A stretch of 44,035 nucleotides of DNA from Nemertoderma westbladi (lineage: Eukaryota > Animalia > Xenacoelomorpha). A program made the translations under genes and the position numbers. Where the stretch lies: positions 1 through 44,035 of the forward strand of contig JAUCBJ010002129.1 in assembly GCA_032718475.1 (NCBI GenBank), in the 5' to 3' direction. Position 1 is the first letter of the stretch; the number at the start of each line of letters is the position of its first letter. Of the stretch, positions 39-44,035 are shown piece by piece. Under the pieces are notes generated by a model. The model saw only the letters and a program-made list of their open reading frames with translations. It made no database searches and was not told the origin of the DNA.

Positions 39-2633
39 ATGAACTGCAGGTACTGGCAGGCGCTACCGAGGCAAGACCAGATAGATTACGCGTCGAGCAA
101 TAAAATCTGCTCGCGATGTGTGAAGAGTGGACACAAGGCCAGGGAGTGCCAAGAGAAGCCGGTCAAGTTTGGCCAAAGGAGAGGCCAAACGATGGCAACG
201 AGCACGGTAGGGGCGAAGAAGAGAGGAACGGTGTTACTTGGAGTAGTACCAGTGCGAGTGATCGGGGAAGGCAATCGATCAGTAACAACACTAATGCTGG
301 TTGATAGTGGAGCTGCCTTCACATTAGTTGAGGAATGGGTAGCCGAAGAAATAGGATTGAGAACGAGGCCAAGCAGAATGGCGGTAACAACCATCTCTAG
401 CAAAGACGAGATCCTAGAGATGAGGACAGGACGGTGCGCAATTGCAGCAGTGGCACCAGGATGCGATTATGGGGCAACCATCGACCCCATCCAAGTAATA
501 GAGTCAATTAACATCAATGCCAGGCGGCCAACCAACATCGAGGTCGAGCAATACAAATTCCTGGACAACATTGACTTCTCAATCCCAGACGTGGACGTTA
601 GGAAGGTATCCATCATAGTAGGAATGGACTGCCCGACGGCCCACGAAAGAATGCAAACGGTCTTCGGCGAAGACAAGCAGAGTGACCCGGTGGCCATATT
701 AACACCATTCGGGTGGACGCTGAGTGGTCCAATTAAGAGCAAGATACCATTTAGGATGTCGGAGACATCAGGATGCATGTTCGCGGGAACAATGCAGGAA
801 ATGGGTGATGAGGGAGCAGAGGAGCAGCTTAAAAGACTGCTCAGACAAGACTTTGAGGGACTGAAAGAGACCGGGGTCGGGACCTCGGTAGAAGACAAGC
901 AGGCTCTACAAAGCGTGGAGGAATCGATGACGTGTGATGAGGGGCGGTATACAATAGGAATGGTATGGAAACTACCGAAGATACCGCTACCCGATAATAG
1001 AGGGATGGTACTCACGAGACTCCGCAAGCTGAAACAAACACTAAAACGGAGCCCCGAGAAGAACGAGTACATTCACAAAACCATTAAGAAGTACGTCGAG
1101 AAGGGATGGGCCGTGGAGTTACCGGTCGACGAGCCGAACACGGACAGGACATACTACCTGCCACTCCACGTAGCATTAGACCCAAAGAAAGGTAAACTTA
1201 GGATGGTAGTCGATGCATCGGCAAAGACCGACGGAAAATGCTTAAACGATTACCTGTTGGAAGGCCCAAATATTTACAATTCGGGCATAGAGGTGTTACT
1301 TAGATTTCGGAATGGGAAACACGCCTTCACGTGTGACATAGAAGGCATGTTCAACCAGGTCCGTGTAACGGAGGAAGACAGCGACAGTCAACGCTTCTTA
1401 TGGTATAACGGCGAAGAAGAACCGCCGATAATACCAGCGTATAAGATGGTAGTACAAAACATGGGGGCCAAGTCGTCCTCATTTACGACGACTATGGCAG
1501 TGAGAGACACGGTAAAGGGGAAGGAAGATAGATACAGCAGTAGGGCCGTCGATATGATCCGACGCGGCTTCTACGTAGACGACGGTATGGAGTCTGGAAA
1601 TACGGTTGAGGAGATACTGGAAACAGGGCGCGAGGTTCGCGACATCCTGAAAGGATCCGGCTTCAACCTGACCAAATTCCAATCCAGTTCAGAAGAATTT
1701 ATCAAGGCAATAGAGGACAAGAAACCAGAATCGACCATGGACAACCCTACAACAGCCAAAGGACAGGACATGGCGAATAAGAGAACACAATCGCAGCAAA
1801 AGGCATTGGGAATCGTGTGGGATAGAGGAACAGACGAACTGAAGTATCAGCTGAGCCAGGAGGGCGCAGACACCCATACGAAGAGGGGTTATGTATCGTA
1901 TATAGCAAGGATATACGATCCCCTAGGCCTAGCATCCCCATTACTAGTCACGGGGAAACAGATACTCAAGAGAGTATATAAATTGAAGGATGAGTGGGAC
2001 GTAGAGGTACCAGAGGACATCAAGAAACAGTGGAGCAAATGGACAGGAGACTTGGAGAGGATGGGAACATACAACATGCCGCGAGTGTATTTTCCGGACG
2101 GGAACATGACGAATCTGGACCTACATATGTTCTCCGACGCGTCGTTAGAGGCATACGGAGCGGCACTCTATTTAGTACAACGAGAGGGGGCTCACAAGCC
2201 CAGACTAGCCTTTAGCAAAGCTAAGTCAACGCCGCCAGATTCAGCATCTGTTCCCAAGTTAGAATTGACAGCTGCGAGACTAGGAGTTAGAGCCACAGCC
2301 TACCTAGTGGATACAATTCCCAACATAGTGGAGACACACTACTGGACGGACTCCATGGTAGTGCTTGGTTGGCTACACAACGAAAAGACGAGATACCCGA
2401 TATTCGTCGCGAATAGAGTGGACGAAATAAGGGCGAGCACAGAACTGGAAAGGTGGCACTACTGCCCAACAGACGAGAACCCAATTGAGTCCATAGACAC
2501 AATGGTTCAATTTCCACAGTTTAGATGTATTAGCCTCTTTGGGTGGTTTAATGTATACATCACGTGCCATGGGCATTCCTTGCAAATAAGCACTTTTTAT
2601 GTCAATGGCATTCATGTCCCACTGCATTGTTGA
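39..2633 (+). CDS. BEL/Pao LTR retrotransposon gag-pol polyprotein fragment (Zn knuckle, protease, RT, RNase H; integrase lost). Homology ends at about 2483 and the last ~50 aa are read-through.
   Basis: CSRCVKSGHKAREC knuckle, LVDSGA protease, TPFGW, YYLPLH..KLRMVVDAS, DIEGMF, FYVDD, YDPLG, FSDAS..AYGA, VPKLEL, WTDS, FVANRV, WHYCPTDENP, all in BEL/Pao order. The frame is open upstream of 39 to the window edge (CQLHANALHKTMNC). Confidence 0.95.
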   Translation: MNCRYWQALPRQDQIDYASSNKICSRCVKSGHKARECQEKPVKFGQRRGQTMATSTVGAKKRGTVLLGVVPVRVIGEGNRSVTTLMLVDSGAAFTLVEEWVAEEIGLRTRPSRMAVTTISSKDEILEMRTGRCAIAAVAPGCDYGATIDPIQVIESININARRPTNIEVEQYKFLDNIDFSIPDVDVRKVSIIVGMDCPTAHERMQTVFGEDKQSDPVAILTPFGWTLSGPIKSKIPFRMSETSGCMFAGTMQEMGDEGAEEQLKRLLRQDFEGLKETGVGTSVEDKQALQSVEESMTCDEGRYTIGMVWKLPKIPLPDNRGMVLTRLRKLKQTLKRSPEKNEYIHKTIKKYVEKGWAVELPVDEPNTDRTYYLPLHVALDPKKGKLRMVVDASAKTDGKCLNDYLLEGPNIYNSGIEVLLRFRNGKHAFTCDIEGMFNQVRVTEEDSDSQRFLWYNGEEEPPIIPAYKMVVQNMGAKSSSFTTTMAVRDTVKGKEDRYSSRAVDMIRRGFYVDDGMESGNTVEEILETGREVRDILKGSGFNLTKFQSSSEEFIKAIEDKKPESTMDNPTTAKGQDMANKRTQSQQKALGIVWDRGTDELKYQLSQEGADTHTKRGYVSYIARIYDPLGLASPLLVTGKQILKRVYKLKDEWDVEVPEDIKKQWSKWTGDLERMGTYNMPRVYFPDGNMTNLDLHMFSDASLEAYGAALYLVQREGAHKPRLAFSKAKSTPPDSASVPKLELTAARLGVRATAYLVDTIPNIVETHYWTDSMVVLGWLHNEKTRYPIFVANRVDEIRASTELERWHYCPTDENPIESIDTMVQFPQFRCISLFGWFNVYITCHGHSLQISTFYVNGIHVPLHC

Positions 2634-5600
2634 CAATATAGTTAAGCATATTCTTAATGATTGCTTGCAGCAGGTAGGAGAGTCAGTCACAGTTTTTTCA
2701 ATATCCTCGAACCCAGGAGCACATAAACGTGCTTTAACTTTAATGATGTCTCCTTTTAATTTTTCTGTGATAACCCACCTAGTCGATATTGTATGCTGCC
2801 CATTGTCACTTATTTCAGTGTATGTTTTCATATCTGACCACTTCTGCATCTCTTCTTTCTTAGCTGTTGTAATTTGATCCTCTCTGCCATCACGGACATG
2901 AAGAACTAGAACATCATCATTACTAACAGGTATAGAATCAATGTTGTCTTCATGGCTACCTTTTGATTCAGAACTAATATCACTGCTTTCATTTTGGGTT
3001 TGGCTTGAACTTTCATCATCATAATCAGCCATCGCACTACTTATATTCCTCTTCCAATCAGTAATGTCATCTCTGAAACTTTTAGAAAACTTATTTCCAT
3101 CTTCATCTTTAAGATTCCACCAATGCCAATAGTTACCTGTTCGTTTACCGCCTCTACTTATTACAGTAGCAGATTTCCATTCTCCGGAGTTATTATCTTT
3201 GTAGAGAATGTTGTCTTTAACTTTAGGCATTTTTGACAGTGGTATAGCTGATGTTATAGGTTTGTTGGATAGGTTAGAGGTTGATTTAGATCTACAAGCT
3301 TCACTATTGAAGGATGGCATTTTGTCATCAATTTGGTGTACAGTATCATCTACATCATCATCATCATCATTATTGCTTCTACAAACATTATTATATTGGC
3401 CAGTATCATTTTCTATATCATTTCCGATGGCATCAACATTGACATCATTGACTGGCATTAACCTACATGGATGAACTCTCAAGTATTGCCCACCATGTTT
3501 AACTAGAACAAGTTTAACATCAGTACCCAAGACAGTTGCAGGGCCCCTCCAAAATGTGGTATTCGTGCGTTTATAATATACTTGTTCACCTATAGAGAAT
3601 ACATAATCAGAATAATTTCTGTGTTTTCGACTTAGTGCTCTTCTCAGTTTTTCACAACTCTCTTGTTTAAGAAATGCCTCTCTAGCAATGTGCAAAGCAT
3701 TTAGATTGTCACGCACAATTTGACTTCCACAGACTGGATCATTTGCAGGAATAGAATTGTCGAAGCTGATAGGGTAATTTGGGTTTTTACCGAAAACCAG
3801 TTGGTTGGGTGTAAAGCCATAAACATTTATGAGGGAATTCTTGGCGGAAACAGCCCAGTGGATGGCCAATGTGAGGTCAAACTGTGTTTGGTATATAATT
3901 TTCTCCAGACAACCCGCCAGTATTGCATTGTGCCTTTCGACGAGACCATTAGACCATGGACTTTCAGCTGCAGTTGTGATAACTTTTATATTAAATTTAT
4001 CACAAAGTTCAAGAAATTCTTCATTATTAAACTCACCACCATTGTCTGAGAGGAATTTGTTTGGTGAGCCAAAAATACGAATCCAGCATTCTAGAATATT
4101 TTTGACTACAGTTTCTTTCCTTTTGTTAGTGATAATAGCAGCTTGACAATATCTGGTGGCATGATCGACCATATTCAATATGTAAATTCCAGGACGAAAT
4201 AATTTCAAGTCCATTCCCACTGTTTCATTAAATGATTTTGCCAATGGAAACCCTACAATTGGTTTTAGTGGTAACTTTCTGAAACGTTTACAGATATCAC
4301 ATTGACTGCTGACATCATCTACAATTTTAGTGATACTGATATTAATTGGATTGTCACTAGCTTTAGATATCAAATCTTTGAGACGATCAGATGTTGGATG
4401 TGCAAATTGTTTGTGAAGTTTAGATATTTTCCTGTGAAGATCATTATTACTGTCAGAATGTGTAAATGGTGAGGTAAACAGAATCTGATTTACCGTTGTG
4501 ACCATAATATCGTCTGTACGTGACAGGGAAAGGCAATAGTGACCTGTAGAAGAAACTATTAAATCAGTATTTTCACCAAGTAATTCAATTGTATCATTAG
4601 CTAAATTGATTTTACCTCCACCTTTCTTCATAGAAGTACGTGAAAGTAGTAGTGGAATATCACATTCAACAATGTCCATTGACAGTCGTGCCTTCTTTGT
4701 ACCAATATGTATAGGGACTGTTGCTTTAAATATAGATTGATGTTTTTCACCATCACCGAAACGAAATCTAGCATCACTTTGTTTTTCTAAAATTTGATGT
4801 TTATCACTGCAACTTAGTGAATCAACATAACATTTATACCATATAGCACCAGCAACTGTTGCGCTACACCCTGTATCTACTACTGCACAATTCAATGATT
4901 CAGATAAGAGATGTCTATTTGGCATCAGATCTTCATCAGTAAATATAATTATGTCATTTTCAGCATCAGTTAATAGCGTTTTGTATTCATTAGTGGTGGT
5001 GTTGCCCTTGTTAAATTCTGGACATTCTTGTTGGTAATGATAAATAGACAAACAAAAAGTACATTGTGTTGGTTTGCCATATTGATCAGGGGGGTTTAAC
5101 TTTTGGCCTAACTTGGGACGAGTTGCCGGCTGTAACTGTGGCCTAGAGGTTCTGAAATTACCTGTAGCTGCAGGCCTATAGGCCGTTTGTCTCTGGAACC
5201 TATTTCCCGAAAACCCACGTGGTCTAAGCAATGGTTGTCTCTGATTATTAAAATTCCAGCTCCCTCTGCCATAATTAGAGCCATAGTAACATGCATTTTC
5301 ATCAATATCATTATATAATTCTGCCTCACCTTCAACACCATATTCAATGTCAGTAGTACCGGTATCAAAAGTTGTAAAAATTGGTTCAGTTTTTACTTTG
5401 ATTGATGTTTCAGCAACAACAGGGGAATGGGTGGTGGAAATATCAGAATGTAATTTTAGAATTTGAGTTTTCATATTTTCGTATGTTAATTCATCTACAG
5501 TGGCTAATGTCAATTGATGTTTACTGTCATCCAAATTGGCACATTTCAGTAGTTGATATGCTTTTACACCTTCAGGTAGTTTCATGTCATATGTTTCACA

Positions 5601-5975
5601 CTTATGTAGGTTTCTTTCAAAGTTTACCATAAAGTCAGTTATATTAGTTTCTATGGGTCGACGGTAGGCACAAAATTTGTCGTATGCATGAAAAGCACGT
5701 ATTGATTTATCTTTCAGATAAAGACCATTTAATTTCAATACAATTAAACTTACCCCATTGTCAGTTCGTAGGTCGTCACGTTTAATTTCTAATGCAGCTT
5801 CTCTTGCTTGGCCTTCTAAGCTGAGCAGAACAGTAGGACCCTGACGCGTTTTCGGTATATCTGTTGCGTCCTGCCAGATCTCCAATTCGCGTACCCATGT
5901 TTCGTATGAGACATCATCACGTAAACGTGGAGGATTCTTAATGTTGTAGTTGTAACTCGAATTTCCGGAAGCCAT
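2373..5975 (-). CDS. Copia polyprotein (Gag, CCHC knuckle, protease, integrase, N-terminal RT). Likely start is MASGN at 5975; homology ends at about 2484.
   Basis: CTFCLSIYHYQQEC, AVVDTGC, FRFGDG, HKQFAH..CDIC, DDE motifs VGMDL / SDNGGEF / NGLVER, then RT motifs RWV..K, KARLCAPGF, DIKSAYLQG, LWKLNHCVYGLN. The frame is uninterrupted. Confidence 0.93.
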   Translation of the reverse strand: MASGNSSYNYNIKNPPRLRDDVSYETWVRELEIWQDATDIPKTRQGPTVLLSLEGQAREAALEIKRDDLRTDNGVSLIVLKLNGLYLKDKSIRAFHAYDKFCAYRRPIETNITDFMVNFERNLHKCETYDMKLPEGVKAYQLLKCANLDDSKHQLTLATVDELTYENMKTQILKLHSDISTTHSPVVAETSIKVKTEPIFTTFDTGTTDIEYGVEGEAELYNDIDENACYYGSNYGRGSWNFNNQRQPLLRPRGFSGNRFQRQTAYRPAATGNFRTSRPQLQPATRPKLGQKLNPPDQYGKPTQCTFCLSIYHYQQECPEFNKGNTTTNEYKTLLTDAENDIIIFTDEDLMPNRHLLSESLNCAVVDTGCSATVAGAIWYKCYVDSLSCSDKHQILEKQSDARFRFGDGEKHQSIFKATVPIHIGTKKARLSMDIVECDIPLLLSRTSMKKGGGKINLANDTIELLGENTDLIVSSTGHYCLSLSRTDDIMVTTVNQILFTSPFTHSDSNNDLHRKISKLHKQFAHPTSDRLKDLISKASDNPINISITKIVDDVSSQCDICKRFRKLPLKPIVGFPLAKSFNETVGMDLKLFRPGIYILNMVDHATRYCQAAIITNKRKETVVKNILECWIRIFGSPNKFLSDNGGEFNNEEFLELCDKFNIKVITTAAESPWSNGLVERHNAILAGCLEKIIYQTQFDLTLAIHWAVSAKNSLINVYGFTPNQLVFGKNPNYPISFDNSIPANDPVCGSQIVRDNLNALHIAREAFLKQESCEKLRRALSRKHRNYSDYVFSIGEQVYYKRTNTTFWRGPATVLGTDVKLVLVKHGGQYLRVHPCRLMPVNDVNVDAIGNDIENDTGQYNNVCRSNNDDDDDVDDTVHQIDDKMPSFNSEACRSKSTSNLSNKPITSAIPLSKMPKVKDNILYKDNNSGEWKSATVISRGGKRTGNYWHWWNLKDEDGNKFSKSFRDDITDWKRNISSAMADYDDESSSQTQNESSDISSESKGSHEDNIDSIPVSNDDVLVLHVRDGREDQITTAKKEEMQKWSDMKTYTEISDNGQHTISTRWVITEKLKGDIIKVKARLCAPGFEDIEKTVTDSPTCCKQSLRICLTILSTMQWDMNAIDIKSAYLQGMPMARDVYIKPPKEANTSKLWKLNHCVYGLNWVLVCWAVVPPFQFCARPYFVHSIRDEYRVSRLFVV

Positions 5976-6405
5976 TACTATAACTACGGTAATGACAGTT
6001 ACCTGTATCGGTGTACGGAATTTATTTATTGGCAGATTGGTACCGGTATATACTGATATATGTACCGGTGTATTAATATCCAAACGCAAACACCAGAATG
6101 ATGATAACAACTATCAGACTATAGAAGCTTACCAGTCTAGTCTATACCCAGTACTGGTGTTTTAAGGTTCTGAGGTTTGTTTTATATATACCTTTAAGTG
6201 AAGAATAACGCCGCCCAAGCTAGCATTCTATGTTCTATCCATACAATATAAAACATCCTTATCAGTTTAGCAGTTACCAATTACAGCAGTATAATGCAGT
6301 ATTGGCTTTAGTAATGGCATCTCCATTCAGCACATTTCAGCACTTGCCTACACAACACAATATCCAGATCAGTACAGCAGTAGTCCTGTAGTCAGACAAC
6401 CACGT

Positions 6406-11395: not shown

Positions 11396-11654
11396 ATGTC
11401 TTATCGCCATCTTGTGTGCATGTTAAGGAGGAGAGTTGTTAGGAGCAGAGGGGAGTTGCACAAAGTTGAATTAATTCAAATATATTTTGTAATGTAGGCC
11501 TAATTTGTATTTTATTTTATTCAATGTTCTACTCTTTTACTGTGTGAATCCCAGTCTGGATGATGATTCAGTACAGTCTGAATATCGAAAAAAAGGGTTC
11601 ATAAGAATAATAAAAGGGGTCATGGGGTAAAAAAATAACTGGATTGGAAAACGA

Positions 11655-12317
11655 ATGGAAAGCAACGGTGGGCCAATTCGCCCCCCTCCCACCAAATGTT
11701 TTTACAAATCGTAATGAGATTGCATTAAATTTGAAACAGAGATAGTTTCACCTCCCCCCTCCTTGCTGGGTGAGCCAGAATTTTTAATTTCGCTTTCATT
11801 CTTTAACTAGATTTTATTCTATTAAATAAATACAACATATTCTGGAACATTTTGTTAATGCATGAGTAGCTACGTAATACTGTAGTATGATTAAAGTAAA
11901 GAGGCATTTCATTGTTGCCAAGCTACGTATGGGATAAACAAAATATTCTAGAATTTGTTGTATTTATTCAATATAATGAAATAGCCTAGCTTATAAGCAA
12001 AACCATGCACGTTTTAAACGCTTATATCTGTGCCAGCCTCTAAAGGGGCATGAAAAATTTAGATTATGTTACATTTTTGGAATCCATATTCGCCGTAAAT
12101 TTCGCCATTTCACAATTTCGCCGTAAACACCTTTTTCAAACGCTTGCAGCTATAGAATGAAAGCGAAAATAAAAATTCTGGCATCATCCTGCAAGGAGGA
12201 GGGAGGTGAAACTACCTCAGTTTCAAATTTAATGGCAATCTCTTTAAGATTAGTATAATTTTTTTTTGGGGGGGGGGGGGGGGGGGTGGCGAATTGGATC
12301 ACCGTTGCTTTCCATTG
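11655..12317. repeat. Inverted pair of a ~160-bp dispersed repeat (about 11655-11806 and 12151-12317)
   Basis: AATGGAAAGCAACGGTG..CCAATTCGCC..AATTTGAAACAGAGATAGTTTCACCTCC..GCCAGAATTTT..TTTCGCTTTCATTCT and its reverse complement. Confidence 0.85.
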
Positions 12318-13799
12318 CCATTTCTTGCTACAGAGGCCCGCGGGGCGGACCAAAAAAGTTTTCGTTTCTGAATTAATTTCTTTAAAGGGACAAGCCGGTC
12401 ATTTCAGCTTTACATATGGTCTGTAAATGAGCATTAGCTTCCTCTAGCCTCGAATACTGACTGTTCTGGAAATAAGTTGTTAGATTATTTTTGATTGTTT
12501 TAGATTACAGTTCGTTTAATGTGGTTCATCGGCCTGTTTCTTATCACTAATTATAATAATATGGATTATTACAATATGGCTTTCCTGATTCTTCCAACTG
12601 TTAATTTATGTATCTGACGGGTTTAACCTTCGTACTTTATATTTGTGTATATATTATTGTTTTTTTACTTTTTACTTTTACTGTTGCCTGTACTGTAGCC
12701 TTGGAGGCGAACAACAATTGGTTAGAAGATAACCTCTCGTTTTGTCTTTAAGGGGCTTTTTGAGTCGAAACTACAAAGATGAAACTTTGTAATAATATGA
12801 TATGTGGCAACAAAACGACGGTGGGTGTGGTTGAGCATCGAACATAATTACAAACTAATTGATTTATTATGTTAATAAATACTAAAGTACTGTACAGCAA
12901 AACTCTTCGCATGAAAGTACCTATTTCTTACCCTCCCTCAGCAAAAAGCTCGAATAAATTATAAACTATTATTGTCTGTTCGGGTTCGGGAATGGAATAT
13001 GCGGTTATAATAATTTTATAATTACATTTTATTTACAATTATAAAATGTATAACGGATAAAATTGCTATCGCACTAACAGTATATCATTTAACATATTTT
13101 CTGGCTATAACAATTTTAGATTGGAATAGCTCAATGGTCTGAGGGATAGCAATCGTATGCAAATACAGAAACTGGATGATCACAATGAGGGTTTGAAGAA
13201 TATATACTGGCAGTAGTACGAGCAATTACAGGTCTGTAACGTATTAACATCGTCGGGCTCCGGTATTACATCGTCGGGCTCCGGTATTCCATTTATCTGA
13301 AAAATCCACCTTTATCACTAAATTTTATGTTTATTGCCTATTCCGTATCATAACTACACTATATATATATATATATCACCCTATATCACTAACTGATAAG
13401 TATCATTCCTATTTCCCTACCTTATTGTAGGACAGAATATACATTATAAAGGCCTGCTGCATTTCTTAATAATCAGTTATAGAGCCTAGTGGATAATATG
13501 TATATAAGTAATAATAATTTACGTCAGAAGGTGATAACTTACACGGAAGAGGACTGTCAATCACCGTCTCTCCTTCGTAATCATAGAAAGAACCATATCC
13601 AGATCCATGTCGTTTTCTGTTTGAACCGGATTTTACCAAAACTGAATCCATTTCTGGACCAACAAAAATCAAATCAATCGCAGAGAATATACCAAATTGT
13701 TACAGGATATCTTAGTTTATAAATGAACTACTATAAAGGCCTATGTATTGTGTCATTGTGTTATCTTTTTGTTAGTGTAAATAATGATATTATAAAATA

Positions 13800-14006
13800 A
13801 TGATTTTGTTCTGAAATGGAAAAATTGAGGAAGCACTGGGGTTTGAACCAGCTCTATACGTGCGTTTCGGACTATCAGGCCTCGTCAGTAGCGCTAACCA
13901 GTTCAGCCATTCTCCACTGACTCTTGCCTTCCTATTTAATCCAATTCTATTGGACAGGCAATATTAATTTGTATATCCTATAAGTTGCATTTCTGAACAA
14001 AATCAT
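13800..14006 (-). mobile_element. Short IR-bounded element containing a tRNA-like Pol III unit with an embedded hammerhead
   Basis: IRs ATGATTTTGTTCTGAAATG (13800-13818) and CATTTCTGAACAAAATCAT (13988-14006), 18/19. On the minus strand: A box TGGCTGAACTGG (13898-13909), B box GGTTCAAACCC (13839-13849), T5 at 13820-13824. Confidence 0.7.
13851..13894 (-). ncRNA. Type I hammerhead ribozyme (minimal stem III)
   Basis: Minus strand GCGCTA CTGACGA GGCCT-GAT-AGTCC GAAAC GCAC GTA TAGAGC: complete CUGANGA/GAAA/GUA core, with one mismatch each in stems I and II. Confidence 0.8.
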
Positions 14007-14743
14007 AATAATAATAACATTTATAACTGAGTTGAGATAACAGCTCAACTCCAATTAATTTAGTGTAAATAATAAACAATAATATATTATATGTATATTG
14101 TATAATGTATATTAAATGCATTTATTATATCCACAATGAAGTAAGTCTTACAGTACTGACAAGTTTATTTACATTAATGCAATGAATATAGTGATTGGCT
14201 AGATTTAAGGAGTCAAATAATCTCTGTGCTACAAAGTGGACTTATTTTTTTTGGCAAACATTCTTATAGCAGTGATTATCAGGAAAGATAATTAATGATA
14301 AAAGTGTATTACCACCATAATACCAATAAACTATTTAGCCCAATTTTGATTGTATGTTAAAGTGATTAATAATAATGGGAAAGCTTTTAATCTGGTTCTA
14401 CTGTATTTGCATTTCAAAGGATTATGCCTAAATGAATCTCATTCAATCAATAAATAATTTACAATATTTAGCATTCATGTAACATATGTGAGATACGTAA
14501 TCTATATTCACTTTTAGACCCGTACGATTAGAAGGCGGATCTGATTGCTACTTTACATTACTTCATTAGTAAACCAACGCCGCTACATTTAGTGAAACTA
14601 CTATAGCTCTCTACAACGCAATATCACCACCACACACAGCCTCGCAGCCTTTGGGGGTTGTTTCTGCAGATGGTATGCAATGTCAATGGACTAACAGTAC
14701 GGTGTAACTACAAACTACAAGGTGTGGTGCCGATGTTAGCAGA

Positions 14744-15485
14744 ATCATCCGTCGTAACTACACGGTGCAGTGGCGACGATAGCGGTATGGCTAATCATCC
14801 ATCGTAACTACACGGTGCAGTGGCGACGATAGCAGTATGGCTAATTAACCGTCGTAACTACACGTGCAGTGGCGACGATAGCAGTATGGCTAATCAACTA
14901 TTATAACTGCACGGTGCAGTGGCGATGATAGCAGTATGGCTAATCATCCATCGTAACTACACGGTGCAGTGGCGACGATAGCAGTATGGCTAATTAACCG
15001 TCGTAACTGTACGGAGCAGTGGCGATGATAGCAGTATGGCTAATCAACTATTATAACTGCACGGTGCAGTGGCGATGATAGCAGTATGGCTAATCATCCA
15101 TCGTAACTACACGGTGCAGTGGCGACGATAGCAGTATGGCTAATTAACCGTCGTAACTGTACGGAGCAGTGGCGATGATAGCAGTATGGCAAATCAACTA
15201 TTATAACTGCGCGGTGCAGTGGCGATGATAGCAGTATGGCTAATCATCCTTCGTAACTACACGGTGCAGTGGCGACGATAGCAGTATGGCTAATTAACCG
15301 TCGTAACTGTACGGAGCAGTGGCGATGATAGCAGTATGGCTAATCATCCATCGTAACTACACGGTGCAGTGGCGACGATAGCAGTATGGCTAATTAACCG
15401 TCGTAACTGTACGGAGCAGTGGCGATGATAGCAGTATGGCTAATCAACTATTATAACTGCGCGGTGCAGTGGCGATGATAGCAGT
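14744..15485. repeat. 50-bp minisatellite, left block (~15 units)
   Basis: Unit ATAACTGCACGGTGCAGTGGCGACGATAGCAGTATGGCTAATCAACTATC and variants. Confidence 0.97.
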
Positions 15486-16253
15486 TTGCCTCAGATTCAC
15501 CAATGGCTTTGTTGGTCAGGGGTGGAACATGAGAGTAGCCTCCTACTCCAGAATCCCCCCCCTCACAATCTGACCTCCCTGGTGACCCAGGTTTTGGGCC
15601 AGAAAGGTCATCAGGAAAGGGACTCAAATAATTGTTGGCTGCTCTCTCTCCAGTAGGGGGTAAGACAGGCAGCCGGTCAGGAGATAACTGACGCCTGTGA
15701 GGCCGATTGTGTCCGGTAATTCCACTGGCCTCTAGTGGCAGGACCTCCGCATTACTAATGTAATCCATAGTGGGGCTTGGGGGTAGTTTTTTGCCGAGTC
15801 ATCTCTCGGGGCAAATACCACACCCTGGTTTGCCATTCCACAGGGTGGGTGTCGCAGTGGAGTCAGATATGAGGCCCATCACCCATATCTACTCTGGCGC
15901 ACATGACCCACCATTGGCTGTTGCAGCTCATCTGCTGGGTCATGCCCTGTACCCCTGCTGCCAGGTGCAGGTCGCAGTGAAGTGCACTCAGAGTGGACAT
16001 GAGAACACTCTATTCCTAACCAGCCACTGGTAGATCACCATCTGCCTGGCCAGACCATATACCCCTGCAGCCAAGTATATGGGTCCTTAATCCAGGACCA
16101 AGGGCGTCCTTATCCAGGAACGAAGGGGTCCTAGTTACAGGACCAGATTTTCCCTAGTAAGAGGATCTATGCAGCACAGCAGGTGGCACCTCCTTTATGC
16201 TGCATGGAGGTGGCAAGTTTTCTTGATCAATGACCTAGAATACCTGACCTAAC
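15486..16253. mobile_element. 768-bp GC-richer insertion of unknown class interrupting the 50-bp array
   Basis: Abrupt composition change; flanked by GCAGT on both sides (15481-15485 and 16254-16258), a candidate TSD. No recognisable domain. Confidence 0.55.
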
Positions 16254-16319
16254 GCAGTATGATAGCCGTCGTAATGTAACGTGATGTAACGTAATGTAAC
16301 TAATCGTAACGTAACTAAT

Positions 16320-19300
16320 CAGCCGTCGTAACTACACGGTGCGGTGACGACGATAGCAGTATGGCTAATCATTCGTTGTAACTGCCCGGTGCAGTGGCGA
16401 CGATAGCAGTATGGCTACTCATTCGTCGTAACTGCACGGTGCAGTCAGTGGCGTGATAGCAGTATGGCTAATCATTCGTCGTAACTGTACGTTGCAGTGG
16501 CGATGATAGCAGTATGGCTAATCAACCATCGTAACTACACGGTGCAGTGGCGACGATAGCAATATGGCTAATCAACTATCATAACTACACGGTGCAGTGG
16601 CGACGACAGCAGTATGGCTAATCAACTATCATACCTGTACGGTGCAGTGGCGATTATATCAGTATGGCTAATCAACCGTCGTAACTACACGGTGCAGTGG
16701 CGACGATAGCAGTATGGCTAATCAACTATCACAACTGTACGTTGCAGTGGCGATGATAGCAGTATGGCTAGTCAACTATCATAACTGCACGGTGCAGTGG
16801 CGACGATAGCAGTATGGCTAATTAACCGTCGTAACTGTACGGTGCAGTGGCGACGATAGGAGTATGGCTAATCAACCGTCGTAACTACACGGTGCAGTGG
16901 CGACGATAGCAGTATGGCTAATCATCCATCGTAACTACACGGTGCAGTGGCGACGATAGCAATATGGCTAATCAACCGTCGTAACTACATGGTGCAGTGG
17001 CGACGATAGCAGTATGGCTAATCAACCGTCGTAACTACACGGTGCAGTGGCGACGATAGCAGTATGTCTAATCATCCATCGTAACTACACGGTGCAGTGG
17101 CGACGAAGGCGGTATGGCTAATCATCCATCGTAACTACACGGTGCAGTGGCGACGATCGCAGTATGGCTAATCAACTATCATACCTGTACGTTGCAGTGG
17201 CGATGATAGCAGTATGGCTAATCAACTATCATACCTGTACGTTGCAGTGGCGATTATATCAGTATGGCTAATCAACCGTCGTAACTACACGGTGCAGTGG
17301 CGACGATAGCAGTATGGCTAATCAACTATCACAACTGTACGTTGCAGTGGCGATGATAGCAGTATGGCTAATCAACTATCATAACTGCACGGTGCAGTGG
17401 CGATTATATCAGTATGGCTAATCAACCGTCGTAACTACACGGTGCAGTGGCGACGATAGCAGTATGGCTAATCAACTATCACAACTGTACGTTGCAGTGG
17501 CGATGATAGCAGTATGGCTAGTCAACTATCATAACTGCACGGTGCAGTGGCGACGATAGCAGTATGGCTAATCAACCGTCGTAACTGCATGGTGTGGTGG
17601 CAATGATAGCAGTATGGCTAATCAACCGTCGTAACTCCACGGTGCATTGGCGATGATAGCAGTATGGCTAATCAACCGTCGTAACTTCACGGTGCAGTGG
17701 CGATGATAGCAGTATGGCTAATCAACTATCATAACTGCACTGTGCAGTGGCGATGATAGCAGTATGGCTAATCAACCGTCATAACTACACGGTGCAGTGT
17801 CAACGATAGCAGTATGGCTAATCAACTGTCATAACTGCACGGTGCAGTGGCGATGATAGCAGTATGACTAATCAACTATCATAACTGCACGGTGCAGTGG
17901 CGATGATATCAGTATGGCTAATCAACCGTTGTAACTTCACGGTGCGGTGGCGATGATATCAATATGGCTAATCAACCGTCGTAACTGCACGGTGCGGTGG
18001 CGATGATAGCAGTATGGCTAATCATCCGTCGTAACTGCACGGAGCGGTGGCGACGATAGCAGTATGGCTAATCAACTATCATAACTGCACGGTGCAGTGG
18101 CGATGATAACAGTATGGCTAATCAACCGTCGTAACTGCACAGTGCGGTGGCGATGGTATCAATATGGCTAATCAACCGCCGTAACTGCATGGTGCAGTGG
18201 CGACGATAGCAGTATGGCTAATCAACTATCATAACTGCACGGTGCAGTGGCGATAATAGCAGTATGGCTAATCAACCGTCGTATCTTCACAGTGCGGTGG
18301 CGATGGTATCAATATTGCTAATCAACCGTCGTAACTGCACGGTGCGGTGGCGATGATAGCAGTATGGCTAATCATCCGTCGTAACTGCACGGTGCGGTGG
18401 TGACGATAGCAGTATGGCTAATCCACTATCATAACTGCACGGTGCAGTGGCGACGATAGCAGTATGGCTAATCAACTATCATAACTGCACGGTGCAGTGG
18501 CGATAATATCAGTATGGCTAATCAACCGTCGTAACTGCACAGTGCGGTGGCGATGGTATCAATATTGCTAATCAACCGTCGTAACTGCACGGTGCGGTGG
18601 TGACGATAGCAGTATGGCTAATCATCCGTCGTAACTGCACGGAGCGGTGGCGATAATAGCTGTATGGCTAATCAACTATCATAACTGCACGGTGCAGTGG
18701 CGATAATAGCAGTATGGCTAATCAACCGTCGTATCTTCACAGTGCGGTGGCGATGGTATCAATATTGCTAATCAACCGTCGTAACTGCACGGTGCGGTGG
18801 CGATGATAGCAGTATGGCTAATCATCCGTCGTAACTGCACGGTGCGGTGGTGACGATAGCAGTATGGCTAATCCACTATCATAACTGCACGGTGCAGTGG
18901 CGACGATGGCAGTATGGCTAATCAACTATCATAACTACACGGTGCAGTGGCGACGATAGCAGTATGGCTAATCATCCGTCGTAACTGCACGGTGCGGTGG
19001 TGACGATAGCAGTATGGCTAATCCACTATCATAACTGCACGGTGCAGTGGCGACGATGGCAGTATGGCTAATCAACTATCATAACTACACGGTGCAGTGG
19101 CGACGATAGCAGTATGGCTAATCAACTATCATAACTGTACGGTGCAGTGGCGATGATAACAGTATGGCTAATCAACTATCATAACTGCACGGTGCAGTGG
19201 CGACGATAGCAGTATGGCTAATTAACCGTCGTAACTGTACGGTGCAGTGGCGATGATAACAGTATGGCTAATCAACTATCATAACTGCACGGTGCAGTGG

Positions 19301-21547
19301 CGACGATAGCAGTATGGCTAATCAACCGTCGTAACTGCACGGTGCAGTGGCTATGATAGCAGTATGGCTAATCAACTATCATAACTGCACGGTGCAGTGG
19401 CGACGATAGCAGTATGGCTAATCAACCGTCGTATCTTCACAGTGCGGTGGCGATGGTATCAATATTGCTAATCAACCGTCGTAACTGCACGGTGCGGTGG
19501 CGATGATAGCAGTATGGCTAATCATCCGTCGTAACTGCACGGTGCGGTGGTGACGATAGCAGTATGGCTAATCAACTATCATAACTGCACGGTGCAGTGG
19601 CAACGATAGCAGTATGGCTAATTAACCGTCGTAACTGCACGGTGCAGTGGCGATGATATCAATATGGCTAATCAACCGTCGTAACTGCACGGTGCGGTGG
19701 CGATGATAGCAGTATGGCTAATCCACTATCATAACTGCACGGTGCAGTGGCGACGATAGCAGTATGGCTAATCAACTATCATAACTACACGGTGCAGTGG
19801 CGACGATAGCAGTATGGCTAATCAACTATCATAACTGTACGGTGCAGTGGCGACGATAGCAGTATGGCTAATCAACCGTCGTAACTGCACGGTGCAGTGG
19901 CTATGATAGCAGTATGGCTAATCAACTATCATAACTGCACGGTGCAGTGGCGACGATAGCAGTATGGCTAATCAACCGTCGTATCTTCACAGTGCAGTGG
20001 CGACAATAGCAGTATGGCTAATTAACCGTCGTAACTGCACGGTGCAGTGGCGACGATAGCAGTATGGCTAATCAACTATCATAACTGCACGGTGCAGTGG
20101 CGACGATAGCAGTATGGCCAATTAACCGTCGTAACTGCACGGTGCAGTGGCGACGATAGCAGTATGGCTAATCAACTATCATAACTGCACGGTGCAGTGG
20201 CGACGATAGCAGTATGGCTAATCAACTATCATAACTGCACAGTGCAGTGGCGATGATAACAGTATGGCTAATTAACTATCATAACTACACGGTGCAGTGG
20301 CGACAATAGCAGTATGGCTAATTAACCGTCGTAACTGCACGGTGCAGTGGCGAAGATAGCAGTATGGCTAATCAACTATCATAACTGCACGGTGCAGTGG
20401 CGACGATAGCAGTATAGCTAATTAACCGTCGTAACTGCACGGTGCAGTGGCGACGATAGCAGTATGGCTAATCAACTATCATAACTGCACGGTGCAGTGG
20501 CGACGATAGCAGTATGGCTAATTAACCGTCGTAACTGCACGGTGCAGTGGCGACGATAGCAGTATGGCTAATCAACTATCATAACTGCACGGTGCAGTGG
20601 CGACGATAGCAGTATGATTAATCAACTATCATAACTGCACGGTGCAGTGGCGACGATAGCAGTATGGCTAATCAACTATCATAACTGCGCGGTGCAGTGG
20701 CGATGATAACAGTATGGCTAATCAACTATCATAACTGCACGGTGCAGTGGCGACGATAGCAGTATGGCTAATTAACCGTCGTAACTGCACGGTGCAGTGG
20801 CGACGATAGCAGTATGGCTAATCAACTATCATAACTGCACGGTGCAGTGGCGACGATAGCAGTATGACTAATCAACTATCATAACTGCACGGTGCAGTGG
20901 CGACGATAGCAGTATGACTAATCAACTATCATAACTGCACGGTGCAGTGGCGACGATAGCAGTATGGCTAATCAACTATCATAACTGCGCGGTGCAGTGG
21001 CGATGATAACAGTATGGCTAATCAACTATCATAACTGCACGGTGCAGTGGCGACGATAGCAGTATGGCTAATTAACCGTCGTAACTGCACGGTGCAGTGG
21101 CGACGATAGCAGTATGGCTAATCAACTATCATAACTGCACGGTGCAGTGGCGACGATAGCAGTATGACTAATCAACTATCATAACTGCACGGTGCAGTGG
21201 CGACGATAGCAGTATGGCTAATCAACTATCATAACTGCGCGGTGCAGTGGCGATGATAACAGTATGGCTAATCAACTATCATAACTGCACGGTGCAGTGG
21301 CGACGATAGCAGTATGGCTAATTAACCGTCGTAACTGCACGGTGCAGTGGCGACGATAGCAGTATGGCTAATCAACTATCATAACTGCACGGTGCAGTGG
21401 CGACGATAGCAGTATGGCTAATTAACCGTCGTAACTGTACGGAGTAGTGGCGATGATAGCAGTATGGCTAATCAACTATCATAACTGCACGGTGCAGTGG
21501 CGACGATAGCAGTATGGCTAATCATCCGTCGTAACTACACAGTGCAG
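16320..21547. repeat. 50-bp minisatellite, main block (~104 units)
   Basis: Strict 50-bp period over about 5.2 kb with a small set of recurring variants. Confidence 0.98.
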
Positions 21548-31090: not shown

Positions 31091-31575
31091 TTGATGCATT
31101 ATGATTGCTATGACTACTTAGCAATAAAATTATGCTGCCACAATTTAATCCACAATCGGCATTTTTGCATTATCCGAGCCATGTACCATAAACCTATATG
31201 GGTAGCTGCCTGTTCTCATTGGTTAGAATCTGTCATTTTGTTCAATAAAAATGTTTCAAGACTAAAAAAATTATGGTGATAGTGTCGAAGTTATTATAAT
31301 CACTTTTATATATTTAAATAATTTAATATCTTTCGCATCTACGTAATCTTTGGCCATATCATCTGTCAAACAGATGGTTACAATAATCACTTTTTATGAA
31401 TTATGATTTTTTAAATTTATAATTATAATATTATTTAATCGTTGCATTATTATTGGCATTTCAGAAATCTGGGAAATTATATACATAATATTTTAACCTA
31501 TAATTACTCCTATGGACATTACCGGCTACATGTAAGGACAATTACTCCTAACAACATTTTGGGCGAAAGAGTAAC

Positions 31576-32232
31576 ATGGATATCGAGTTCGCGAAAATAA
31601 TATTGGTCGCGGTTTCTATATTGACAGAGAAAGTTATAGATGTGTCTACCACTGCTACTTGTTTTTATAGACGCACCCTGATTACCTATACGACCGCTCA
31701 TCCCGACGTGTTCCCAGATGTCGATTGGTATGTAGAACACCCAGGTTCCAGTGAAACAGATTGCTCCACCTGTGCTTTGATATTCAATCAATTGCCAGGA
31801 AAATTTTCCTTAAACAACGACAACATGAAAGGTTTGATGTACACGAGGTACGAATACTGCGTTCGTGATGAATGCAAGGATTACAAAGAAGACGAATGTA
31901 TGCTGGTGTATCAGGATTCCCTTCAAGAGATTGGATCAACGTACAGCATCGAGATGACACATCCAAGCTGCCAGCAGATCTGTTGCAACGGCACAGAAGC
32001 CTGCAACAAAGTAGAAGACGTGATGTGGGAACACGATTATCTGTACCCAAATGGAACCGTGAATTGGAATGATCCCATGTTTGATCCTGTTACAACAGAA
32101 CCACCAAATACCACAGAGGCAGAGCCCACGACAACGGCTGAAATATTCACAACAGCTAGTTTGGCGAAACACCTCAATGGAGTTGATTATATTCTGCTGA
32201 CATTAACAACAATTACTATTAACTTCTACTGA
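31576..32232 (+). CDS. Putative secreted/GPI-anchored Ly6/uPAR (three-finger, quiver-like) protein with a Thr-rich stalk
   Basis: 218-aa intact ORF in AT-rich flanks: hydrophobic N-terminus, 10 Cys ending in CCNGTEACN, N-glycosylation sequons (NGT twice, NTT), TTEPPNTTEAEPTTT stalk and a hydrophobic C-terminal tail. Confidence 0.75.
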   Translation: MDIEFAKIILVAVSILTEKVIDVSTTATCFYRRTLITYTTAHPDVFPDVDWYVEHPGSSETDCSTCALIFNQLPGKFSLNNDNMKGLMYTRYEYCVRDECKDYKEDECMLVYQDSLQEIGSTYSIEMTHPSCQQICCNGTEACNKVEDVMWEHDYLYPNGTVNWNDPMFDPVTTEPPNTTEAEPTTTAEIFTTASLAKHLNGVDYILLTLTTITINFY

Positions 32233-38610: not shown

Positions 38611-38652
38611 TTTGGCTGATGATGTATATCATTATATACGAAACGTTCCGGA
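38611..38652 (+). ncRNA. Minimal type I hammerhead ribozyme-like motif (Penelope pseudo-LTR type)
   Basis: TTTGG CTGATGA T GTATAT-CATT-ATATAC GAAACGTT CCGGA: 6-bp stem II, palindromic AACGTT, stem I with G-U pairs. Confidence 0.6.
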
Positions 38653-38705
38653 TCTAAATACTTGTGTTTTTTCCTATCGCACTACTTGTTCTTTTCTGTT
38701 TTAAA

Positions 38706-40244: not shown

Positions 40245-40560
40245 TGTTATCTTCAATTAATATAATAAACCAGCTAAAGACACTCAATGTTTTATTTTAT
40301 TTCTATCATCCATTCGATGGATGGTAGGCATTGCACACATAATGAATCCATTATAATATACTACATGTTACAGCAGTATTACAATACCATATGATATAGA
40401 ATATAGCCATGTGTTACACCCAGGGGGTACGTACGATTTGGTTACACCATGCCCCGGAATATAGGATCTTTCTTTATTTAAGTAACTACTGGACAGTGGA
40501 TGATAATCCACTGTGATGATCCACTTAATCCACTTAATGAGATTGCATAAAATTTGAAAG

Positions 40561-41307
40561 TGAGATAGTTTCACCGATATGTGATAGTGAGATAGATAGT
40601 GAGATAGATAGTGAGATAGATAGTGAGATAGATAGTGAGATAGATAGTGAGATAGATAGTGAGATAGATAGTGAGATAGATAGTGAGATAGATAGTGAGA
40701 TAGTTTCACCGATATGTGATAGTGAGATAGATAGTGAGATAGATAGTGAGATAGATAGTGAGATAGATAGTGAGATAGATAGTGAGATAGATAGTGAGAT
40801 AGATAGTGAGATAGATAGTGAGATAGATAGTGAGATAGATAGTGAGATAGATAGTGAGATAGATAGTGAGATAGATAGTGAGATAGATAGTGAGATAGAT
40901 AGTGAGATAGATAGTGAGATAGATAGTGAGATAGATAGTGAGATAGATAGTGAGATAGATAGTGAGATAGATAGTGAGATAGATAGTGAGATAGATAGTG
41001 AGATAGATAGTGAGATAGATAGTGAGATAGATAGTGAGATAGATAGTGAGATAGATAGTGAGATAGATAGTGAGATAGATAGTGAGATAGATAGTGAGAT
41101 AGATAGTGAGATAGATAGTGAGATAGATAGTGAGATAGATAGTGAGATAGATAGTGAGATAGATAGTGAGATAGATAGTGAGATAGATAGTGAGATAGAT
41201 AGTGAGATAGATAGTGAGATAGATAGTGAGATAGATAGTGAGATAGATAGTGAGATAGATAGTGAGATAGATAGTGAGATAGATAGTGAGATAGATAGTG
41301 AGATAGT
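40561..41307. repeat. 12-bp tandem repeat (GATAGTGAGATA)n, about 60 copies
   Basis: Near-perfect array with the variant GAGATAGTTTCACCGATATGT at its start and again near 40700. Confidence 0.98.
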
Positions 41308-42029
41308 AAGTTGTTGGTACTGATTGAAAACTGGCCATGCAAGATAATCTGATTTTTGCTGAAAAATAGCTGATATCAAGGACTTCTAGAACATAATATT
41401 TATAATATTTTGATCCATGTTCTTGTAGACCTTGCTGATATATGGGCGTTCGAAGTGGCATGTTTATGCATCTGTGCAAGGGTTGTGGGATTCTTGCATG
41501 GTCAGTTTTCAATCAATACCAACAAATCACTAACGGTACAAGAATAACTGCGGTTTTCTCTATATTTTTTTTGGAAGGAAAGTATAACACTGCGACATTG
41601 GGTTGAAGTGGTATGCAAGGACAGTCAAGTTTAGATGAACTCCGTATCCAAAAATGTCGAGAAGTCTGATACGGAATTTTATAAGCTAGAGAGATAGAGA
41701 TAGAGAAGGCAAAATCGAAATACAATGCTTAGTCACTTAGTCAAAAAAACAAAAAACAAAACAAAAAAAACAAAAAAACACTTAGTCAATGATGGGATAA
41801 GGGTCATGGAAGATGGAATAGGTTTACATTGAGTTCAATTACATATGTTTACACCATGTCCTGGAATGTAGTGTCGTTATTCATGTACCTGCCCCCTACC
41901 CCCCCCCCCCCCCCCCAAAAAAAAAAATTTGTTTTTCTTCAAAACTTAATGAGATTACATGAAATTTGAAACAGAGATAAATTTACCTTCCTCCACCTTG
42001 CTGACTGAGCCAGAAGTTTTATTATATTT

Positions 42030-43108: not shown

Positions 43109-44035
43109 CTAACCAACATCTCACTACATATATGTATAAGGTTGAAGAATAACTGCGGTGTCCGGCGGAGACACCGTTTTAAAATGCTTGTTTCTAAAGA
43201 ATAAAAGCGAAAATAACAATTCTGGCTCACGCATTAAGGAGGAAGGAGGTGAACCGATCTCTTTTTAAAAATTCCTGCAATCTCATTTGATTTGTAGAAA
43301 TATTTGGGGGGAAGGGAGGGGGGGGGCAGATACCTGAAAAACGACACTATATTACAGGACATGAGCATTATTTTTACTGTTTGAGTCGCGCGTTACTATA
43401 AAAACATAATTAGAAAAATGTTCCAGATTCCGTACAAACATTAACAGTTCAGTAGTAGTGCAAAACACCCAAATAAATTATGACAAGTCTTTTACTTTTA
43501 TAAAAGAACCAAAGTAATATTTGAAGGAAATACATAATTGTAGCGAACAGTAGAACTCAAGGTTTGATAATATGAAATTTATTTAATATTGGGTAGATGT
43601 AACTGCGTAACCATGAAATTTCACACGTTGACAAATGTTGCGATTGTTATGCATTGCTTGGTTTTTGCTATTCAGAGCGTTGTAAACCATCTGATGTAAG
43701 TTTGCAACCGTAGCCAACTATGTAGGCCTAAATATAATAAATTAATAATTGCAATGTATCGCATAATTGGTATGTACGTTTTTTGTTTAAGGCTTTGACT
43801 TATCATTTTATTACATAATAGCACACCTAATTATATACCTTTTTGCACCGAATAAACTCAACTTTCCACCAAAAACGGCTCACTTTTTAGCACCAAATGT
43901 TATAAGGTCTGTCTATGGCGCGGGTTAGGGTCGCCCTGTCGAAACCATAGACAAAAAGTGTCTTCAACCCTAAACCTAACTGAAAACCTGGTTTTCAACC
44001 ATGCCTGTGGCCAATAAGGCCAATTGAAGCCATAT

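Follow-up and report, generated by a model that had tools for sequence, protein, structure and literature searches.

A multi-copy repeat with a hammerhead ribozyme motif nested between the A and B boxes of a tRNA-like unit

The minus strand of the window, which is the whole 44,035-nt stretch of DNA that was analysed, carries between positions 13800 and 14006 an A box, a type I hammerhead, a B box and a run of five T residues (T5), in this order and all within inverted arms. The element is best explained as a decayed solo copy of a non-coding animal repeat of ~275–290 nt. With a probability that we put at roughly 0.5, from the sequence and from analogy with known elements, this repeat would be a non-autonomous retroelement of the retrozyme or Sm-alpha type that has a new, nested layout and spreads through RNA.

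The A box (13909–13898, minus strand) was called from sequence and fold, using the box consensus, and belongs to a D-arm-like hairpin (13907–13893). It leads into a complete type I hammerhead (13894–13851, minus strand), which is assigned from the sequence together with the family majority letters at 13884 and 13871. On the same strand, the 5′ strand of helix I (13894–13889) is followed by the CUGAnGA core (13888–13882), helix II (13881–13869), GAAA (13868–13865), a helix III of 2 bp with a loop of 4 nt, GUA (13859–13857) and the 3′ strand of helix I (13856–13851), and the cut is predicted at 13857/13856. Every invariant core base and the G10.1–C11.1 pair are present, as are the CUGAnGA, GAAA and NUH core, the three helices and the opening at helix I that characterize the type I class. 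Helix II forms four of its five pairs, with a C–U mismatch at 13879/13871, and helix I forms five of six, with G–A at 13892/13853.

The B box (13849–13840, minus strand), also called from sequence and fold, belongs to a T-arm-like hairpin (13852–13835) with a pair probability of 0.64–0.77. The T5 run (13824–13820, minus strand) is the predicted Pol III terminator, and a T run is found at the equivalent site in other copies (loose ends before 13834 and 13839). A leader (13917–13984, minus strand) that precedes the predicted Pol III start is common to other copies. The inverted arms lie outside these parts, the upstream one at 13985–14009, with gaps to 14028, and the downstream one at 13797–13821, with gaps to 13774; they match over 25 nt at 88% identity, or over 48 columns once gaps are allowed. 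The preliminary description had placed the unit inside a 19-bp inverted repeat, of which the enclosure holds and the length does not. An 8-bp hairpin (14029–14051) lies 20 nt beyond one arm, where the element nears its upstream limit. A direct repeat of 14 nt (14060–14073 upstream, 13772–13785 downstream) would represent a target-site duplication or a terminal overlap.

A hammerhead descriptor, written after the motif was seen, matched the window once, with both boxes present, whereas block-wise dinucleotide shuffling of the window, repeated 1000 times, produced four hammerhead matches in total and none with either box. Another CUGAnGA..GAAA string in the window (38616–38657) fails the descriptor, and no second copy of the element was found in the window. 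The A box, the hammerhead core, the B box and the terminator all lie on the minus strand where the preliminary description had placed them, and the tRNA–hammerhead chimera that it proposed is real, in that the boxes and the core are present and none of the 1000 shuffles reproduced the combination.

The preliminary description had proposed a check against the Rfam models, and this gave no support: neither a hammerhead nor a tRNA match was returned for the element at the gathering score or at E-values up to 10, and the only matches in that range were to two unrelated snoRNAs (E = 5.7 and 7.1). ARAGORN likewise reported no tRNA in the element. Compared with a tRNA gene, the D and T arms can form, the anticodon loop and the variable loop are absent, and the acceptor stem is weak. 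In the model, the D-like arm (13907–13893), the three inner pairs of helix I, helix II, helix III and the T-like arm (13852–13835) are mutually compatible, and the combined tRNA–hammerhead fold has an energy of −3.7 kcal/mol alone and −9.0 with the remainder folded. In this fold, G13892 and A13853 become single linkers flanking helix I, presumably at the sites where tRNAs have the G26–A44 pair. Since helix I lies between the D-like and T-like arms with its linkers at these sites, it can form, in the modelled structure, in the position of the anticodon stem, with the catalytic core in that of the loop. The earlier claim that a hammerhead replaces the anticodon arm is borne out in this model.

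In the fold prediction for the window copy, the hammerhead pairs have a probability of 0.01–0.06, compared with 0.82–0.83 for a competing hairpin that sequesters the core, and the hammerhead is absent from the predicted fold, whose free-fold minimum is −19.8. The window copy is, judging from its letters, decayed, because stem II carries a mismatch where most copies pair Watson–Crick, and it is predicted to be inactive and misfolded. When the helix III segment was paired with a second copy of itself, six of eight positions paired (−3.1 kcal/mol). This self-complementarity agrees with the short helix III of the dimer-cleaving type that had been described, cleavage itself being a prediction.

The element was compared with four contig sets (X1–X4), which are labelled as DNA and come from one organism, in three samples and three studies; X1 and X3 share a sample, and one of the runs may be the source of the window itself. 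No RNA set was among those listed as containing the stretch. At 80% likeness, 256 (X1), 178 (X2), 184 (X3) and 19 (X4) contigs aligned to 13640–14180, as against one contig each for the flanks of the element in X1–X3. This comparison of sequences indicates that the element belongs to a multi-copy family, as the preliminary description had supposed. The mean per-contig depth at 13884 is 27–98 times the flank depth (X1–X3), so that tens of copies are the least to be expected and hundreds or more are likely. The summed contig depth reaches 132,056, compared with 29 at the single-copy flanks (X1), a sum that does not equal copy number because overlapping short contigs add up. In X4, the depth is uneven and some parts are uncovered, and its pattern was left out of the evidence. 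Among 32 pieces examined (652 more exist, and some represent the same locus across runs), 10 span the B box to the A box unbroken. The nested layout is therefore not peculiar to the window locus. Short tandem duplications of the A-box half alone or of the B-box half alone (13880–13910 and 13839–13870) were also seen in contigs of X1–X3.

The letter that restores the stem II pair at 13871 accounts for 11,995 of 12,424 (X1), 6,010 of 6,338 (X2), 16,162 of 16,767 (X3) and 606 of 606 (X4) of the summed depth. At 13884, the free N7 position, U is found in nearly all of the depth, and this letter would weaken the competing hairpin of the window copy. Further frequent core variants are located in loop II (13875) and at 13869, where a G–C to G–U change, likely a CpG change, makes up 11–40% of the depth in X1–X3. 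No invariant core base is touched in any of the 40 variant rows that were examined, out of 45. From these letters, the stem II difference is a repair and not covariation, and a young family would give a similar pattern. No compensatory double changes were seen in the helices in the per-site variant tables, which list no substitutions for 13831–13868, although individual pieces differ by 5–7 letters within that range; the 3′ half is thus poorly tested. Loose ends before 13865 (X1 and X3) suggest, at a low agreement of 0.47 and 0.51, copies whose helix III is longer by two bases; GUA, six bases and a motif like the B box again come after it.

Family sequence continues for ~140 nt on the upstream side of the predicted Pol III start. 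That the leader is common to other copies is seen from loose ends behind 13909 in 21, 18 and 17 contigs (X1–X3, agreement 0.63–0.69), and leader pieces in other contigs reach 13954–13983. In further contigs, the A-box region is joined to ~14038 (part of 14038–14060) in four joint forms, the sides of which have only 24–35 letters and are weak singly. The preliminary description had considered a self-transcribed RNA of ~100 nt to be the mobile unit, and copies that extend so far upstream of the Pol III start speak against this; the 100-nt Pol III RNA is probably not the template, since the copies contain a leader that such an RNA would lack.

On the downstream side, one X2 contig runs unbroken through 13793–13861, from helix III through the B box, and seven contigs each in X1 and X2 run from the B box into the T run and then diverge without the downstream arm. 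The A box and the ribozyme core are the most widely common part of the family, and few contigs hold the arms relative to the core. The arms occur in the window copy and in at least three other arrangements, and are apparently missing from most copies; a core-less copy with two arms (13836→13988) was observed in X1, X2 and X3, and in one contig an arm is joined to the A box across 21 letters (13909→13988). A strand-reversal joint (13906/13938) is found in all four runs, X1–X4, and inverted partial copies are typical of Penelope-type insertion. No unit-length tandem joint was found among the joints listed, where one may go unseen because the contigs are short and the family is diverged. A 3-bp TAA duplication of the Harbinger type was considered and dropped, because homology passes the TAA triplet and continues to 13793 in three contigs.

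The exact 14-nt direct repeat (13772–13785 and 14060–14073) brackets ~275 nt. Among 2879 random pairs of AT-rich flanks, none reached a direct repeat of 14 nt, the longest being 13. The repeat may have arisen as a target duplication, may mark a terminal overlap or may be internal sequence; alignments above 14073 in a few contigs make a clean target duplication less likely. Between the two repeat copies, the 274 nt fold with z = −4.0, and none of 200 shuffles was equally stable.

One X4 contig joins 14019 to 13764 and skips 254 nt (13765–14018), which on the minus strand start with GT and end with AG, with CTAAC just before the AG and no common letters at the joint; GT..AG ends are expected by chance in ~0.5% of random joints. 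This joint may reflect a spliced intron covering nearly the whole element, if X4 is RNA (it is predicted to be DNA), or a deletion allele. Its interpretation as an empty insertion site was dropped, because family sequence (14019–14059) remains and because of the GT..AG ends.

The window is rich in repeats, with satellite arrays, a Copia-type element and several LINE-type reverse transcriptase fragments. A frame of 1245 codons (2373–6110, minus strand) has integrase and Copia-type reverse transcriptase matches, and a LINE protein of the window has named animal relatives in krill and clam (3 named animal rows among 120), which points to an invertebrate as the likely source. A long array of a 50-nt satellite (14743–21547, ~15 + 105 copies, with a higher-order period of 150 nt) starts 700 nt from the element. 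On the downstream side, ~120 nt past the element, a 111-nt stretch (13653–13543, minus strand) resembles an exon: it has a CAG acceptor that is rich in pyrimidines, an ATG (at 13651), a run of 36 open codons and, as donor, GTAAGT. A separate dispersed repeat family occurs at 11654–11808, 12119–12316, 40532–40575, 41898–42023 and 43163–43326, with two copies inverted ~300 nt apart, and a host-like, cysteine-rich frame of 226 codons with hydrophobic ends (31552–32232) gave no Pfam match and no homolog.

When the layout pattern was scanned elsewhere, 39, 0 and 0 matches were obtained in viral contigs, 13 in metagenome contigs and 8 in prokaryote genomes, and none of these 60 loci has a paired stem II together with both boxes, in collections that hold little animal DNA. 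Six viral contigs (L005, L010, L013, L024, L034 and L039) contain hammerhead-like cores with a paired stem II and no A box. No description of a hammerhead between an A box and a B box was found in the literature searched, a scope that leaves aside Repbase/Dfam and most subscription papers.

For the retroelement, we infer the following mechanism, in every step from transcription onward. Intact copies would be read as part of longer transcripts; multimers made by Pol III would be blocked, because the T run would stop Pol III before the next unit. Dimers of the hammerhead, whose helix III is self-complementary and 2 bp long, would cleave after GUA, and the cut would leave a 2′,3′-cyclic phosphate and a 5′-OH at the anticodon position, where the D arm, the T arm and the long arms would hold the cut ends together. 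The host tRNA ligase RtcB would join the ends, units cut from multimers would close into circles, and a Penelope-type reverse transcriptase would copy and insert the circles. From the two boxes and the T run, a Pol III RNA of ~100 nt would also arise, a possible dimer partner in trans.

The size, the low GC content, the self-pairing and the long flanking repeats fit non-LTR retrozymes and argue for such a retroelement. Against it, a scan of 12 window proteins revealed no Penelope element, and it is weakened by the fact that tandem arrays define retrozymes, yet the joints listed include no unit-length tandem. The T run directly behind the B box would also block the route through Pol III multimers used by Sm-alpha. 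Given the inverted arms, the core-less two-arm derivative and the internal deletions, a DNA element fits equally.

Such a DNA element, to which we assign an appreciable minority chance, would be non-autonomous (a MITE or foldback element, or one associated with Helentrons) and would move at the DNA level with the tRNA–hammerhead cassette as cargo, while Pol III would give a self-cutting RNA of 100 nt that has no role in movement. The arms, inverted over 25–48 nt, are expected of it; the core-less copy with two arms (X1–X3), the copy with an arm next to the A box and the four joint forms at ~14038 resemble internal deletion derivatives, and the common sequence upstream of the Pol III start requires no RNA step. 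The 8-bp hairpin 20 nt past one arm also favours it, and a hairpin near the element end is seen in Helentron-type ends. DNA-level movement is harder to reconcile with the scarcity of arms relative to the core, including the seven armless contigs each in X1 and X2 that pass from the B box to the T run, and with the TAA triplets beside the arms, which mark no boundary, since the match continues to 13793 in three contigs. It gives no reason for keeping the ribozyme core and stem II intact, and the 14-nt flanking repeat speaks against it, as such a repeat is long for most DNA transposons. The short fixed duplication directly beside the inverted repeats by which MITEs and foldback elements are recognized is absent. 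If the element moves as DNA, the ribozyme would be a curious cargo of modest interest.

Three other explanations appear less probable. A SINE-like unit, in which the 100-nt Pol III RNA itself is mobile and is cut into A-box and B-box halves that are resealed, or else is kept uncut for copying, is improbable. It would account for an A box, a B box and a T run that are complete within 100 nt, for the A box and ribozyme core being most widely common and for the many copies that lose similarity behind the T run, but at least 45 nt upstream of the predicted start are common to copies, and cleavage would split the promoter. Of the features of tRNA-derived SINEs, the internal A and B boxes are present and copies starting at the Pol III start were not seen. 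A host multigene family that encodes small Pol III RNAs, has been multiplied by duplication and has a function of its own, for example as self-made RNAs resembling tRNA halves, would explain why the promoter boxes persist along with the terminator and the upstream leader, as they do in RNA genes. It is distinctly improbable, in view of the many diverged, deleted, inverted and partly duplicated copies, which look like decaying selfish repeats, and of the likely CpG change at 13869 in 11–40% of the depth (X1–X3). That the hammerhead is a chance look-alike within an ordinary tRNA-derived repeat would agree with the lack of an Rfam match, with the disfavoured hammerhead fold of the window copy and with the absence of compensatory changes from the per-site variant tables. 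We regard it as very hard to credit, given the presence of all core bases, G10.1–C11.1, three helices and GUA, the four matches in 1000 shuffles, none with a box, and the improvement of stem II by the family majority letters.

A more specific proposal on the working of the retroelement, which we advance as doubtful, is that it is a mobile RNA acting as a natural, self-cutting mimic of a pre-tRNA, in which the hammerhead, standing where the anticodon loop would be, would replace the tRNA splicing endonuclease, the scaffold would pass the ends to RtcB to be circularised and the 100-nt RNA made by Pol III would act as a trans partner. If this is true, the trans partner would let solo copies cleave. 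A ribozyme built into a tRNA scaffold that brings a Pol III promoter and terminator of its own would allow two questions to be addressed with a single 100-nt RNA: how solo copies of hammerhead retroelements that depend on dimers come to be transcribed, and how they are cleaved and passed to tRNA ligase. The family would be a natural counterpart of the engineered systems that combine ribozymes with RtcB for circularisation.

Among the known systems, the Helenus TRIMs resemble the element in that a non-coding animal mobile element has A and B boxes, derived from a tRNA, midway along a longer terminal sequence, as stated in the available text of PMC10886601. In contrast, Helenus has two LTRs, a PBS, a PPT and 4-bp duplications, and that text describes no ribozyme. 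Four motifs of the element occur nowhere in one Helenus supplementary file (PMC10886601); no second copy lies in the window, and the element could conceivably be a solo LTR. The hammerheads of Penelope-like pseudo-LTRs share the short helix III, the palindromic loop region, G10.1–C11.1 and the dimer-type design, according to the available part of PMC4209133, whereas no coding part lies near the present element and the word 'tRNA' occurs 0 times in the text of PMC4209133.

Closer likenesses are seen with the metazoan non-LTR retrozymes, which, in the available parts of the sources, have a type I hammerhead, a low-GC unit of 150–450 nt and strong self-pairing (PMC7229834; PMC7761336; bioRxiv 10.64898/2026.07.22.740005), with long flanking duplications when present and solo copies common. 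The present element, with its type I hammerhead, its low GC content, its 274–288 nt and its z of −4.0, agrees with this unit and is a candidate retrozyme. Animal retrozyme RNAs are circularised by RtcB, self-paired and 170–400 nt long (PMC7229834, available text), and retrozymes form tandem units, reportedly without a promoter (PMC7761336, available text). The available text of bioRxiv 10.64898/2026.07.22.740005, which gives the Penelope link of retrozymes, has 'tRNA' and 'promoter' 0 times each. Unlike the retrozymes as presented in these parts, the element has a tRNA-type promoter and a terminator surrounding the ribozyme. In the window it occurs as a solo copy.

The Schistosoma repeats Sm-alpha and Sj-alpha likewise combine a tRNA-related Pol III promoter and a type I hammerhead within one short repeat that is non-coding and high in copy number (PMC6765202; PMC2770079). 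In the available parts of the papers, their promoter is joined to the hammerhead with the promoter first (PMC6765202; PMC2770079; PMC8490949) and, after cleavage, comes to lie 3′-terminally in the unit (PMC6765202). Here, by comparison with those parts, the ribozyme lies between the boxes, the cut would split the promoter, the B box is succeeded by a T run, and long inverted arms are present. Since the hammerhead is placed between the boxes, here and in other copies, and not behind a whole promoter, the element is not a member of Sm-alpha, though, by sequence and analogy, it would work like a retrozyme or an Sm-alpha element.
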